Sequence record: PQ657771.1
Origin: Escherichia phage EC.P3
DNA length: 33,378 bases
Strand: one strand, 5' to 3'
Both the position numbers and the translations under genes were made by a program. Positions 10,550-16,240 of this stretch are shown here, piece after piece. Positions within the stretch are counted from its first letter, which is position 1, and the number at the start of each line of letters is the position of its first letter. The notes under the pieces were generated by a model. The model searched no databases. It was not told where the DNA came from and was given only the letters and a program-made list of their open reading frames with translations.

Positions 10550-12355
10550 TTATTTGAATAAATATGGAATTACAATTGCCACAGAAAATGTTACAGGGTT
10601 ACTGTGACCATTTGTTATGTGTACGCGAATTTTATTTGAAGATAACACCTGCAATTGAGTTGTGGCAATAGCAGAAGCTGCACTTCTTGATGTTATCTTA
10701 ACACTTGCATTTACCATGTCTAACTTTTCTGTTGTTGTTATATCTTGATATACATTGACACCTGCTGGAACATCTTGGAATGTTATAGTCTGATTGTAGA
10801 AACCATTAAACAATACTGTTTTCCCATGGGATACACCAACGCCTGATCTTATTGTTGGTAACAGTGTAGAGTTATCAGATGATATAAATGGAAACCCTAA
10901 GTCACCATCTGGTGAGGTGTTATTATTAAAAACATCGACATGGTCAAGATAGGTTGCCCTAACCATGCTTAATGGCCTCTGGTTACTATTCCATGAGTCT
11001 GCTGGAGTAACAATTTTAGGCTTGAACACAAGATCTCGTATACCCCAAGAATCAATTGCTATACATCCGTTTTCAAGCCCTTTAGCATATACAGTGTTAG
11101 TTTCGTCCATGCTGAAAGACGTTGGCGTACCGACCAGTATGCGGGCATAAGCATACTTTTTATAAAATGCATCACCTGGAGTTGCAGCACCGCCCCGCCC
11201 AGTAAGACCGTTATAAATAGATTGGTCATCCATATTTTCAAAGTAACAAAATTTAAACGCTATATTTTGCGGTCGAATAAGTGCAGCAGAATCAGTACCA
11301 ACAACGTAATTCGTCCACCGTTCAAACGCCATGGCAATAAAATTAATCGGACCATTACCAGCAGCGCCTGATATTTTGAAAAATGTATCAAAATCAACAG
11401 ATCTTCCGCCTATAAACTTAATGTTATATGCCCGCTGTATATCTGGGCCATTTTTAATTGCAAGCCAATCTGTATCTATAAATGTTACGTAAAAAGAATT
11501 GATACCTTGACATGGAACGTCAAACCCAAGCCAAGAAGTGCGGTTTGTTTTAATATTACCATTTAATGTCGATATTCCTTTATTCGTACCGATAGTACCG
11601 TTTCCATACTGTGGAATTCCCTTTACAATGACATCAGATAAAAAAACATCCGAATTTTCGCATTGAATAGCATAGTCCCCAGGAACGTCACAATATAATT
11701 GACTTGACTCCGCTCCTATAACCTTATTAGTCATATCGCCAGAATATCCACGAATCTCAAAGCGCCTACCTCCATATACGAGCTTTCGTTTAATTGTAAG
11801 CACTGAACCAGGTGGGATTGTAATAATCAAATGATTTGGATAGGCTGCCATCATTTCTTCAACAGCATCTGAGTCATCAGCCACACCATCGCATGTTGCG
11901 CCATAAGCCTGAGGTGTTACTGCGAACACAGCATTCTGAATTGTTCCTCCTTGTGTTAGGGGTATCATGTCAGCCCCCTTTCCATCTCCAGTCGATGTTA
12001 TTTCCTGGCGAAGCTGATCAGGATCATACTTCAGCACATTGGGAAAATTGAACTGCTGCGAACCATGCGCATCATAAACAGCCATAGAATGGCCTTGCAC
12101 GGTAACGAATTTGGCAATCTGTCCGTTATATACCGGATATCCGGCAGCGTTAATGATTATTGGTTGCGAAACAGGAATGTGAGAACCGTCTTCGTTCTCT
12201 ACATAAACCTGAATCTGGTTTTCAGGATTTACCGGGTCAGTGTCAATTTTACCGATATAAATTTTGCCATTAGCTACGGCTTTAAAAGAACGCGCCATAG
12301 TGAAGAGTTGCGAAGGCATACTCACTACAACATTGGCATTTATTGAATCTGTCAT
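10550..12355 (-). CDS. tailspike protein: P22-type head-binding domain, divergent receptor-binding domain
   Basis: Start moved to ATG 12355 (GGAG 8 nt upstream); [59 protein letters not shown] closely matches the P22 gp9 N-terminus as recalled; remainder diverges. Confidence 0.85.
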
Positions 12356-12413
12356 TTGATTTGCTCCAGATACAAGGAATGGCCGCAGCATGGCTACGGT
12401 GAATTTTGGGCAT

Positions 12414-12455: not shown

Positions 12456-13334
12456 TCAGTAGTTATGTACTGAAGGAGGTAATTCTTTATTCTTAAGTCT
12501 CATCCATGCGGAAAGATTCGTTGGTCCGTCTGGCTCATTGATATCAACATCTCGTGTGTGATTGATTAAAACGTCTCTCGCCATATCGATAATACGGGAG
12601 AACTCATAACCGCAGTCATGACATCTGCCGGAATAGTTCGATTGAATTTGTTTTAGCGCCGGATACAGTTCGCGGAATAATGCCTGTGAGCGGTTGGCAT
12701 AATCCCATAACCATACAAGGCTGTTTGCTTCTTTTGCAGAAAGCTCGTTGGTTTTCTTCTCTTGTTTGCCGATGAATTCACCTTCAAGCACTACCCTGTG
12801 GATGTACTCTACGGCTTGCGGGATTTGTTCAATTGAAAGTTCATCAATGCTGTCAATACCAAAACGCTGATGAACCATATTGTATGCATCGTCATAGCGA
12901 AGTCCTTTCTTTCCTACCAGCATGTTTACTGCATCGCGTAGCGGTGTTCTTTCCTCAACAGTGGTTTTCTTTCCTTTTACATACTCGCCATGTTTGCGAA
13001 TTGAAGGCAGAACTTCTGCTGTTACCCACTTGCGGAATTTGTGCGGGACTGAACCTTTATTGACTGCATCGCGGCAGCGCAGAACCAATGTATACATACC
13101 TGATTCGCTCACAATGCTTAGATTCTGCTCACCACCAAGGGTGTAACTTAAAGTTACTCCCTTTTCATCGTCATCAAGTGCAGTAAGCGCCTTGCGTGAG
13201 TTAGTCAGGGTTAAAGCATCACAAACATCTTTTGCTACAAACCACGGCTCACCGCACTTGTTGATGACGCGGATTTCACTGTCGCCGAATTTGAAGATGG
13301 TGAAATCGTTTTGTGCCTTTGCTATACTTTTCAT
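12456..13334 (-). CDS. ant: antirepressor (BRO-N domain)
   Basis: [33 protein letters not shown] is a BRO-N signature; downstream of arc as in P22 immI; start set to ATG 13334 (AGGAAAT upstream), alternative TTG at 13400. Confidence 0.7.
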
Positions 13335-13396
13335 GTCAATATTTCCTAATCCGATTTGTTGATGCCGAAGCCCTGACTGTTCCCGCAGTTGGGGCT

Positions 13397-13666
13397 TCAA
13401 CGTTTTTCCACTTCATTTTGAATTTGCTTAAGTAGCATATTTGTCTCGTCAAGCCTCTTGTTAATACGGTCAAGGCTTTCTACTAAATCGTTATGTGCAT
13501 GTGATACTTCGTAATTTGAGACTGATTTCTTTTCCTCTATCGTCTTTGTCAATCGTTCCCCTGATTGATACATATTGATTAACGATGTAAAAATCACGAG
13601 CAAGCAAACTACAATGATTGCGCCAGACAAAAATTGTAAAGAACGATCAAGCAATGACACCTTCAT
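13397..13666 (-). CDS. small membrane-anchored coiled-coil protein
   Basis: One N-terminal hydrophobic helix ([19 protein letters not shown]) then heptad-like charged segment; coupled to the arc stop; lies between arc and ant. Confidence 0.5.
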
Positions 13667-13815
13667 ACCGCCACCCCCTCTCTCTTCAGGCTGTCTATCA
13701 GGCGCTTGATAACCTCTGAGTTAAACGACCTGCACTCTTCCTTTGCCTTGCTACCGATAGCATCCTTTAACGACTGCGGCATCCTTACCAAAATCTTACT
13801 TATTTCTTTCTCCAT
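13663..13815 (-). CDS. arc: Arc-like ribbon-helix-helix repressor
   Basis: Start at ATG 13815 with GGAGGG 5 nt upstream; MEKEISKILVRMPQSLKDAIGSKAKEECRSFNSEVIKRLIDSLKREG matches the Arc fold and RS.NSE motif. Confidence 0.75.
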   Translation of the reverse strand: MEKEISKILVRMPQSLKDAIGSKAKEECRSFNSEVIKRLIDSLKREGVAV

Positions 13816-13929
13816 GTTACCCTCCACACAAACAACTCTTTTCGAATACAAAAGATAGCAAAGTGAGTATATCTAGTCAAAATTTTTTTGCATACACTTT
13901 GATATCAAATTGAATACCAAAGGTGTGAT
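13816..13929. promoter_or_regulatory. divergent Pant/Pmnt-like promoter-operator region
   Basis: 114-bp AT-rich spacer between divergent arc-like and mnt-like genes; inverted repeats CAAAGTG (13859..13865) and CACTTTG (13895..13901). Confidence 0.5.
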
Positions 13930-14178
13930 ATGGCAAAGGGTGTGTCAATTTCTCCAACTACGGTAAGAATCCCTGAATCTTTACGCGAGGCTCTTGCTGT
14001 CAGAGCATCAAAAAATGGTCGCTCTGTTAACTCCGAGATCGTCATGATTTTGCAAGCCGCGATTGATGAAGATAGGTCGCCAAAGTCAGTTGAGTCATTT
14101 GCTCAGCAAGAAGCTGACAAATTCAAAGAGGCGCTGCTTGAGACGCTAAAGACCATGTATGGTAAGGATGAAAAATAA
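13930..14178 (+). CDS. mnt: Mnt-like ribbon-helix-helix repressor
   Basis: 82 aa; RIPESLREALAVRASKNGRSVNSEIVMILQAAI and C-terminal KFKEALLETLKTMYGK parallel P22 Mnt, including the tetramerisation tail. Confidence 0.8.
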   Translation: MAKGVSISPTTVRIPESLREALAVRASKNGRSVNSEIVMILQAAIDEDRSPKSVESFAQQEADKFKEALLETLKTMYGKDEK

Positions 14179-14714
14179 TGCTGCACACAATTCATTTCTT
14201 ATGCCCTGTTAACACTGCCACTGTTGGGCAACTTCAGAACCACTGTCTCACCGCATTATCTCAAGGCGCAACTGAATTAAATATCCATATATCAAGTCAG
14301 GGAGGGGAAACTGCTGCTGGCTTTACTGCGTATAACTTTCTTAAGTCACTCCCTGTTACCGTTAGAACTCACAACATAAGCAATGTTGAATCCATAGCTA
14401 ATATCGTTTTCCTGGCTGGCTCAGAACGTTTCGCAAACCCATTATCAAGATTCCTGTTACATCCTCTATTATGGGGCTTTGCCACCCCAGCCGCCGACCA
14501 TGCCAGATTGAGAGAGTACGGGAAATGCCTCGATAACGATCTTGATCGCTTCGTTGAGACGTTCAATATCGACATCGGAACCCATATTAGGTGGGCATCC
14601 CTGATAGCAGACTCGACCATTTTGGATGCTAACAAGGCTCTTGAGCATGGCATAATTAATTCCATAAAAACTGCAAGGCTGGTATCCAATCAGGCAAACT
14701 GGTGGGTTGTTTGA
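14178..14714 (+). CDS. ClpP-like serine peptidase (S14-like fold)
   Basis: Aligns by eye to ClpP: NIHISSQGG vs INSPGG, ESIANIVFLAG vs AASMGAFLLTAG (Ser retained), LLHPLLWG vs MIHQPLGG (His retained), Asp present downstream; start overlaps mnt stop (TAATG). Confidence 0.7.
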   Translation: MLHTIHFLCPVNTATVGQLQNHCLTALSQGATELNIHISSQGGETAAGFTAYNFLKSLPVTVRTHNISNVESIANIVFLAGSERFANPLSRFLLHPLLWGFATPAADHARLREYGKCLDNDLDRFVETFNIDIGTHIRWASLIADSTILDANKALEHGIINSIKTARLVSNQANWWVV

Positions 14715-14740: not shown

Positions 14741-14766
14741 AAAAACCCACCTGACGGTGGGTTTTA
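14741..14766. terminator. bidirectional rho-independent terminator between convergent genes
   Basis: AAAAA-CCCACC-TGAC-GGTGGG-TTTT, exactly between the ClpP-like stop (14714) and the 140-aa gene stop (14767). Confidence 0.7.
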
Positions 14767-15189
14767 TTAGTGCTTGTATAGCTTGAACTCCCTGTCGAGC
14801 CATAAGACATAAAAAGTGGCTCCTATCTTATAACCAACCATAGGTGCCTTAGAGCAAAATCTGAACGCAATGAAATCCACATCTTGAGTAACATGCTTAG
14901 GAATCGGAGCCTTTATCGCGTTTCTGGCAATTTTTTCCGTCCCAAGCCCGTGTTTATCAGATTTTCGTATCTCATCCCATGACATCTGACTTAACCTGAA
15001 CAGCCTATCTGCAAATGCTGCCTTTTCATGCTTTTGGCAGCAATCTAGGCAATACCCCTTTTGTAGGTATCTAAGAGAAAATACAGGCGGACTTTTGTCT
15101 ACATCATGAGATTCGTGATGGATAGAGAGGCCAACAGTAGCAGAGCTCTCTTTATCCCTCTGTTTTATTCTTCCCTTAACTCTAGACAT
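14767..15189 (-). CDS. unrecognised 140-aa protein, candidate toxin/effector partner of the Panacea protein
   Basis: 5 nt downstream of the DUF4065 gene on the same strand; no transmembrane segment; no family recognised. Confidence 0.5.
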   Translation of the reverse strand: MSRVKGRIKQRDKESSATVGLSIHHESHDVDKSPPVFSLRYLQKGYCLDCCQKHEKAAFADRLFRLSQMSWDEIRKSDKHGLGTEKIARNAIKAPIPKHVTQDVDFIAFRFCSKAPMVGYKIGATFYVLWLDREFKLYKH

Positions 15190-15194
15190 ACACG

Positions 15195-15644
15195 TCAGTT
15201 AATTAACGTTTTGAAAAAACCTTTCATAGAATCAAGTGTGATTTCTTGGCTAACCGCACCCTCAATGTAAGCATCTTTCCATGGCTGCTCTTCGTGAGTC
15301 ATATTGCGCAGTTTCCAGGCAGAAAACTGACCATAAACTTTATACACCTCATCCAGCAATTCAATTTCATCTTCACTGAATTTTTTAGCGTCAAAGTTTT
15401 CTGGCGCAGGTAAAGCTCCGTTACCACAGTCCCTATATTTACGATACAATTCAGGAACTACTGGCCCATGCATCCAGGCTTCAATTTTCTCATTAAATAG
15501 CGGTTTACCCAGAAGAACCAGAGAAAACCCTTGGGCATAATACGTCAACTTCTGAATTTTTAGGTTAGAGATAATGTCGCCACTTTCTTCATCGCAATGC
15601 GCCAAGAAGTAGTCGGCGACATCAAAACAAGTGAGCATAAACAT
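15195..15644 (-). CDS. Panacea-domain (DUF4065, GepA/SocA-like) protein, candidate antitoxin
   Basis: CFDVADYFLAHCDEESGDIISNLKIQKLTYYAQGFSLVLLGKPLFNEKIEAWMHGPVVPELY matches the DUF4065 core pattern. Confidence 0.7.
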   Translation of the reverse strand: MFMLTCFDVADYFLAHCDEESGDIISNLKIQKLTYYAQGFSLVLLGKPLFNEKIEAWMHGPVVPELYRKYRDCGNGALPAPENFDAKKFSEDEIELLDEVYKVYGQFSAWKLRNMTHEEQPWKDAYIEGAVSQEITLDSMKGFFKTLIN

Positions 15645-16012: not shown

Positions 16013-16240
16013 GTGAAGCGATGGTTCCTCATAATTACTGTTTTCGCGATCATTTACACTATTTTCCCTGCATTAAAAGCACCAATGCAAATAATTTCGC
16101 TTGCAATAATTGCAATTGGTGCTTTCATTGCAGTAGCCGTACTTGTGTTTAAGGTTTTAAAGTTTTTAGTTTGGCTATCAAAAGATGATGGATGCAAAGT
16201 TCATCAAGAAAAAGAAGGCAAAATAACCAAAGTTGACTAA
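16013..16240 (+). CDS. small two-helix membrane protein
   Basis: GTG start 8 nt after AAGGAGGT; two hydrophobic helices and Lys-rich C-terminus; convergent with gp16. Confidence 0.55.
   Translation: MKRWFLIITVFAIIYTIFPALKAPMQIISLAIIAIGAFIAVAVLVFKVLKFLVWLSKDDGCKVHQEKEGKITKVD

Follow-up and report, generated by a model that had tools for sequence, protein, structure and literature searches.

A Truncated ClpP-Like Gene Overlapping an mnt Homolog in the immI Region of Escherichia Phage EC.P3

The mnt homolog and the ClpP-like gene

We analyzed a 33,378-nucleotide (nt) stretch of Escherichia phage EC.P3 (sequence record PQ657771.1), referred to here in its entirety as the window, and focused on an open reading frame (ORF) for a ClpP-like protein in its P22-type immI region. 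An initial annotation, made from the sequence alone, had described a homolog of the P22 repressor gene mnt that overlaps, by the sequence TAATG, a ClpP-family ORF of 178 amino acids (aa). The coordinates, the overlap, and the Pfam Arc and CLP_protease matches of the two products agree with that description. The two genes and their junction are as follows.

13930 to 14178, plus strand: mnt, first cistron, encoding an 82-aa Mnt-type ribbon-helix-helix (RHH) repressor (Pfam Arc, 9.6e-11)
14164 to 14180, plus strand: coupling signal, consisting of an AAGGA Shine-Dalgarno (SD) sequence at 14164 to 14168 in the last Mnt codons and TAATG at 14176 to 14180
14178 to 14714, plus strand: ClpP-like ORF, 178 aa, second cistron of the mnt operon (Pfam CLP_protease, 4.3e-12)

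Read directly from the DNA, the junction is AAG GAT GAA AAA TAA TG. The TAA stop codon of mnt (14176 to 14178) and the ATG of the ClpP-like gene (14178 to 14180) share a single base, and the AAGGA sequence lies nine bases 5' of that ATG. Over 74 residues, the Mnt homolog has 36% identity to P22 Mnt in an alignment that covers both the RHH domain and the C-terminal coil, and it also matches a FitA-like antitoxin RHH family (2.1e-08). The Pfam Repressor_Mnt model gave no match to the Mnt allele of the window in a Pfam scan. We considered a Mnt-ClpP fusion produced by -1 frameshifting on the GAAAAAT run and rejected it, because the run of A residues is not conserved (variants include GATGATAAATAATG and GATAATAAATAATG); such a fusion is also contradicted by a TGA codon in the ClpP frame three codons before the ATG. 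A longer N terminus for the ClpP-like ORF was likewise rejected, because the frame has no upstream start.

We counted the coupling in 49 loci that encode a protease 79 to 100% identical to that of the window and have an intact start. TAATG forms the end of the upstream ORF in 48 of the 49 loci, which indicates that the overlap is not due to chance, and 47 of those upstream ORFs are of the RHH/Mnt type. At least six N-terminal (DNA-binding) types can be told apart among the RHH partners within this clade, and one type is identical to P22 Mnt over the first ~50 residues. All of the partner types share the tail ...(E/V)(T/S)LK(T/K)(M/I)Y(G/A)KD(E/D/N)K, followed by TAATG, and the SD sequence of the protease gene is formed by the AAG GAT codons of this shared tail. 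The last ~25 mnt codons (...ETLKTMYGKDEK) are common to at least six otherwise different Mnt/RHH genes. Many Escherichia coli records align to the window from position 14097 onward only; these codons therefore move together with the protease gene. A mosaic junction is accordingly visible inside mnt, in the window (14097 to 14178) and in loci L032 to L079. Two loci (L050 and L056) have two to three tandem RHH genes, the last of which bears the tail and TAATG.

The ClpP-like product scores 46.7 bits against Pfam CLP_protease (PF00574; cutoff 20.2) over residues 24 to 165; its scores against the NCBIfam ClpP equivalog models are all far below the cutoffs. By far the best solved relative is PDB 9UXT (E=4.6e-35 over residues 3 to 175), with ~50% identity over the first 105 residues and 38 to 40% overall. 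This structure is Pseudomonas plecoglossicida ClpP1 (PpClpP1), a divergent ClpP that is truncated at the N terminus and has a Ser-His-Pro "triad" (PMC12900304). An AlphaFold2 single-chain model of the window protein has a predicted local distance difference test score of 90.4. In Foldseek comparisons, this model matches 9uxt_A with a template modeling (TM) score of 0.92, a root mean square deviation of 1.8 Å, and 38% identity, and it matches ClpP of E. coli, Staphylococcus aureus, and Mycobacterium tuberculosis with a probability of 1.00 and a TM score of ~0.8. The predicted structure thus retains the ClpP alpha/beta fold with its handle helix. A fold search of BFVD returned no close viral structure; its matches were generic proteases, ClpP-like or of the head type, with identities of 24% or less.

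We mapped the catalytic residues by aligning 21 family members with E. coli ClpP and 9UXT. The precursor positions S111, H136, and D185 of the E. coli ClpP reference were verified. Ser72 (codon 14391 to 14393) falls in the column of E. coli S97 and His95 (codon 14460 to 14462) in that of H122; both are invariant, and the SxGG / GG oxyanion motif is kept. The column of E. coli D171 is occupied by Ser146 (codon 14613 to 14615) in the window protein and by S, A, G, T, or P among the 21 family members. The same pattern extends to 149 subfamily representatives, all of which have the Ser and the His, with G, A, R, Q, S, E, P, or T, and never Asp, in the Asp column. The initial annotation had read the Ser, His, and Asp positions as conserved. 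That reading stands for the Ser and the His and fails for the Asp: the protein has no Ser-His-Asp triad of the canonical kind, its third position being Ser146. An Asp is found one residue earlier (Asp145), in the closest clade only. Because the residue corresponding to Asp171 is replaced, the Asp/Arg oligomerization sensor of canonical ClpP is also absent.

In the alignment, Met1 of the window protein falls near residue 40 of the E. coli ClpP precursor. Missing are the propeptide and ~26 N-terminal residues of mature E. coli ClpP, which constitute the axial loops. In ClpP, the axial loops gate the pore and engage ClpX and ClpA. The truncation extends to the subfamily, in which the median N-terminal overhang is 8 residues, compared to 40 in the E. 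coli precursor. Judging from these alignments, the 178-aa ORF encodes an N-terminally truncated ClpP paralog of the PpClpP1-type Ser-His subfamily. Near its C terminus, the window protein also has an (N/R)WWV motif (14697 to 14711) in a predicted beta-strand, which is conserved in the enterobacterial phage clades and may be a docking element.

Conservation and genomic settings of the relatives

We carried out a profile search of 1.84 billion representatives, with clusters defined at 50% identity. Approximately 260 clusters match at E<=1e-30; most of their members are 180 to 200 aa long, with very short N termini. The ratio of nonsynonymous to synonymous substitution rates between clades is 0.07 to 0.14, with synonymous sites near saturation. 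The ClpP-like gene is real and is under strong purifying selection. The E. coli allele (at least 95% nucleotide identity) is present in 128 of 5426 complete genomes (2.4%), 126 times at near full length, and all copies are chromosomal. RefSeq labels the product "ATP-dependent Clp protease proteolytic subunit," beside an "Arc family DNA-binding protein," in all of the near-full-length records sampled (11 of 12).

More distant relatives, at 52 to 74% identity to the window protein, are encoded by single genes that have no RHH neighbor and are always opposite in strand to every identifiable flanking lytic gene. They occupy several positions: between Rz/LysC and the small terminase subunit gene in Leclercia, Klebsiella, and E. 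coli prophages (~30 loci), between baseplate-like and tape-measure genes in Pantoea/Erwinia-type prophages (~13 loci), and between N and erf/ssb in Proteus prophages (4 loci). Antisense placement as a single gene is, as we read these maps, the signature of an accessory gene (moron) expressed apart from the lytic operons. The gene has been captured independently in at least four accessory-gene slots, in P22-like, lambda-like, and other temperate phages. In some of the stand-alone clades (L004, L005, L006, L088, L093, L095, L096, and L102), a 12-aa ML..RNILK.. stretch is encoded in frame ~36 nt before the MLHT start; the conservation of this stretch means that these clades may start earlier than the window protein does.

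In the sewage phage E212 (L001, MZ043897, 4516 to 5033), a remnant of the IS21 gene istB stands in place of arc, mnt, and most of ant. The E212 ClpP-like gene and the gene pair that follows it (the Panacea pair described below) are 100% identical to those of the window. The E212 junction lies 20 nt 5' of the ClpP-like ATG, so the SD sequence and TAATG are preserved. In the lambda-like siphophage PhiR12_1 (L003, PV340549, 3606 to 5618), the whole cassette of ant, arc, mnt, and the ClpP-like gene is inserted in antisense orientation between tail genes K and L; therefore, the immI module moves between phage types as a unit.

Operon signals and the surrounding immI region

The remaining features of the immI region, including the candidate control signals of the mnt operon, are as follows.

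10550 to 12391: tailspike gene, one flank of the immI region (the other flank consists of gene 16/20 homologs)
12456 to 13400, minus strand: ant, antirepressor (Pfam Bro-N, 6.1e-20, and P22_AR_C, 3e-28; PHROG 245, anti-repressor Ant, 1.3e-112)
13336 to 13402, plus strand: sar antisense RNA, immI regulator of ant (Rfam RF00262, 64 bits against a gathering score of 43)
13663 to 13851, minus strand: arc, first gene of the ant operon (Pfam Arc, 3.7e-11)
13852 to 13929: divergent Pant/Pmnt control region, with a layout that matches the P22 annotation
14742 to 14765: A-tract, GC hairpin, and U-tract, within the 52 nt that separate the ClpP-like gene from the convergent next gene (RNA fold -18.9 kcal/mol, z = -3.0)

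The immI circuit is complete as in P22, with ant, sar, arc, and a divergent mnt, and mnt is oriented away from arc-ant in the same layout as in the P22 annotation. Between mnt and arc, we found a 36-bp imperfect palindrome (inverted repeat, 13886 to 13921), which is a candidate operator. A promoter scan detected a promoter-like site, TTGACT-17-TATCTT, on the minus strand (13880 to 13852). Downstream of the ClpP-like gene, the hairpin at 14742 to 14765 is likely a bidirectional terminator that closes the mnt operon; a simple terminator scan did not flag it. The hairpin lies at the position of the annotated mnt terminator of P22, after orf59a. According to the P22 annotation, the mnt transcript consists of mnt and orf59a and then the terminator, and sieA comes next with its own promoter. 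The ClpP-like gene therefore occupies the place in the mnt operon that belongs to orf59a (59 aa) in P22.

We also noted several features of the neighboring genes. Because sar (13336 to 13402, plus strand) overlaps the start region of ant, its position suggests that translation of ant actually begins at the ATG near 13334 and not at the TTG at 13400. An 89-aa ORF (13397 to 13666, minus strand; phrog_27312, E=6.5e-61) lies between arc and ant, with a 4-nt overlap with each. It is a membrane ORF with a hydrophobic N-terminal helix, and P22 has no gene at that spot; given that it is wedged between arc and ant, it would be coexpressed with the antirepressor. The slot of P22 sieA (14767 to 15644, minus strand) holds two genes in an overlapping operon. 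One encodes a 149-aa SocA/Panacea-domain protein (Pfam, 2.2e-24) and the other a 140-aa phrog_8366 protein with weak likeness to PADLOC NsnC (1.8e-7) and NCBIfam MAG6450 (1.9e-5), and the pair looks like a PanA-type toxin-antitoxin (TA) or defense pair. In other E. coli variants, a YafO toxin occupies this position. Finally, a 75-aa ORF (16013 to 16240, plus strand), antisense to the end of the gene 16 homolog, encodes two hydrophobic segments and has no family match; it may be a small membrane accessory gene.

A possible role in lysogens and comparison with known systems

The best functional guide to the window protein is PpClpP1. That protein forms a homotetradecamer with a 42.7-Å axial pore, its peptidase activity is 13-fold weaker than that of the canonical paralog and is abolished by S73A or H96A, and it does not bind ClpX. 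Together with the canonical ClpP2, it forms a heterotetradecamer that is more active, also in combination with ClpX. It has been purified after overproduction in E. coli, and its own host grows more slowly when the gene is deleted (PMC12900304). A further precedent is ClpP2 of Pseudomonas aeruginosa, an alternative ClpP that tunes ClpXP through mixed tetradecamers (PMC13056064).

On balance, we consider it probable, though by no means assured, that the window gene encodes an orphan, truncated ClpP paralog that is made in lysogens from the mnt operon and that acts most likely through mixed particles with host ClpP. As the second gene of the mnt operon, the ClpP-like gene is probably expressed in lysogens; we infer its expression from Pmnt from the anatomy of the locus and the established biology of P22. 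With an SD sequence in the last Mnt codons and an ATG that overlaps the stop codon, it would be translated whenever Mnt is made, that is, in the established lysogen. Mnt would then be an expression vehicle for the protease rather than a partner that neutralizes it. By analogy with PpClpP1, the product would assemble into open-pored heptameric rings or tetradecamers with weak Ser-His peptidase activity, and it would make no direct use of ClpX or ClpA. Mixed particles with the housekeeping ClpP of the host would alter the output of ClpXP and ClpAP to the benefit of the lysogen, which might gain prophage stability or resistance to superinfecting phages. In broader terms, the likeliest role is that of an accessory peptidase made in lysogens, where it would modify host Clp proteolysis or exclude other phages. 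A bolder proposition is that temperate phages of the Enterobacterales carry a dedicated, lysogen-only, truncated and unfoldase-blind "ClpP modifier" ring that docks onto or mixes with host ClpP and reprograms ClpXP and ClpAP, as a previously unrecognized single-gene means of prophage maintenance or superinfection exclusion; we hold this to be doubtful.

Several observations weigh against a lysogen-made modifier of host ClpP. Because identity to PpClpP1 is 38 to 40%, coassembly with E. coli ClpP is an extrapolation and nothing more. Members of the Pseudomonas clade are chromosomal, lie beside KGG/DUF6555 stress genes, and are not found in phages, so their biology may not transfer, and the (N/R)WWV motif is absent from PpClpP1 and from that clade. 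The promoter scan found no clear Pmnt consensus in the control region, and promoter hits 5' of the stand-alone relatives are at chance level, with the exception of a Klebsiella gene that is bracketed by a 10/12 promoter site and a terminator. In addition, a search of PADLOC-DB 2.0 with the ClpP-like protein matched no defense family at E<=0.1.

The last of these results also bears on a second explanation, in which the protein is a stand-alone exclusion protease: an ungated, ATP-independent, open-pore peptidase that has no need of host ClpP and degrades superinfecting phages' proteins when these are unfolded or disordered, for example ejection or early proteins. The gene adjoins the P22 sieA slot, whose occupants are defense- or TA-like (the Panacea/SocA pair here and the YafO toxin in other strains), and the relatives sit in lysogeny-type accessory slots, including the region between N and erf. 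PpClpP1 does form an active, wide-pored particle by itself, but its weakness in that state, together with the absence of any PADLOC match, leads us to regard this explanation as unlikely.

A third explanation casts the protease as a safety device of immI that degrades Ant (or Arc or Mnt), so that leaky antirepressor cannot induce the prophage. Antirepressor turnover had been raised in the initial annotation, alongside a role in exclusion. In its favor, all loci of the 79 to 100% clade have the gene in the mnt operon, beside arc-ant. However, proteases that are 98 to 100% identical are paired with Ant proteins of 24 to 98% identity and with at least six Mnt types, and such freely varying partners argue against a specific substrate. 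The 52 to 74% relatives, moreover, are at phage positions with no immI genes nearby, and the window protein lacks the loops through which an unfoldase could be employed against a folded protein. We therefore give this explanation little credence.

The initial annotation had also raised the possibility of an RHH-antitoxin/protease-toxin pair, in which the RHH protein would neutralize a toxic protease in the manner of a type II TA system. A small RHH gene that lies 5' of a larger gene and overlaps it is the classic TA layout, the Mnt homolog has the FitA-like match noted above, and even behind another mnt, the protease of L050 and L056 retains a coupled RHH gene of its own. Nevertheless, the RHH protein is a full-length Mnt homolog within a complete arc/sar/ant immI circuit, and it varies freely while the protease stays constant. 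The pairing is confined to the 79 to 100% clade: neither the 52 to 74% clades nor the Pseudomonas clade has an RHH neighbor, and the fact that the 52 to 74% relatives stand alone makes a TA pair unlikely. Phage E212 retains an intact gene with no Mnt, and PpClpP1 has been overproduced in E. coli, while its loss slows the growth of Pseudomonas. These findings do not support the TA proposal, and we judge it very improbable.

A role as capsid (head) maturation protease, the annotation given in phage phiv205-1 (MN340231, GenBank label), is suggested by the best PHROG match (phrog_94, head maturation protease, 5e-21), but that match spans the protease core only, of profiles that are much longer, the NCBIfam NF045542 score is 49.7 bits against a cutoff of 120, and P22 procapsids mature without a protease, so that we dismiss this explanation as barely credible. 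The position of the gene points the same way. The head module of the window is of the P22 type (coat PF11651 and portal PF16510, at 23.6 to 28.1 kb on the minus strand), and the coat, portal, and terminase genes lie 9 to 14 kb from the ClpP-like ORF on the opposite strand, consistent with the earlier placement of the gene in the accessory immI region outside the head module. Far from being head-module capsid proteases, the relatives are all antisense to structural genes.

For annotation, it follows that the database labels "ATP-dependent Clp protease proteolytic subunit" and "head maturation protease" are both misleading. The fold is ordinary and the subfamily itself was described structurally in 2026; the new element is the setting: the copy described here is carried by a phage, is fused to mnt, and appears to be expressed in lysogeny. 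Many phage and defense proteins, among them lambda O, the Mu repressor, and antitoxins, have their fate determined by host Clp proteases, and phage-encoded inhibitors of Lon are known. The gene is a lead, open to testing, on how phages may manipulate host proteolysis. If it does remodel host proteolysis or block superinfection, it would add a new class to the lysogenic-conversion functions, in a simple system of a single gene; should it have no phenotype, its value would lie mainly in the correction of annotations. In the literature, we found no description of a phage or immI ClpP-like gene or of a phage-encoded ClpP paralog that acts in lysogeny, and one candidate paper (PMC13566846) turned out not to bear on the subject.

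Among known systems, PpClpP1 is the closest to the window protein. The two share a short N terminus without axial loops, an invariant Ser-His pair, and a similar length (183 versus 178 aa), and Pro150 of PpClpP1 and Ser146 of the window protein fall in the same column, giving both a non-acidic third position. They differ in that PpClpP1 is chromosomal and conserved across Pseudomonas, whereas the window gene is carried by a phage and coupled to mnt; oligomeric state, activity, and coassembly with the housekeeping ClpP were demonstrated with PpClpP1. Canonical ClpP (E. coli, MEROPS S14, PF00574) has the same fold, the aligned Ser and His, and the SxGG oxyanion motif. Identity to it is 20 to 25%, and the window protein differs in having no propeptide or axial loops and in not being encoded beside clpX. 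Listeria ClpP1/2 (PDB 4RYF, which is among the structural matches) and P. aeruginosa ClpP2 are conceptual analogs, in that each involves an atypical second ClpP that tunes ClpXP by way of mixed tetradecamers, but these accessory proteins are chromosomal paralogs of other ClpP lineages. The ClpP-related head maturation proteases (NF045542, PHROG 94) share the protease core, and the window gene has no scaffold or capsid fusion. The immI region of P22 itself has the same gene order, with ant, sar, arc, a divergent mnt, a small second cistron, and a terminator, all between tailspike gene 9 and gene 16. Relative to P22, the window has the ClpP-like gene, joined to mnt by TAATG, in place of orf59a and the Panacea/SocA pair in place of sieA.

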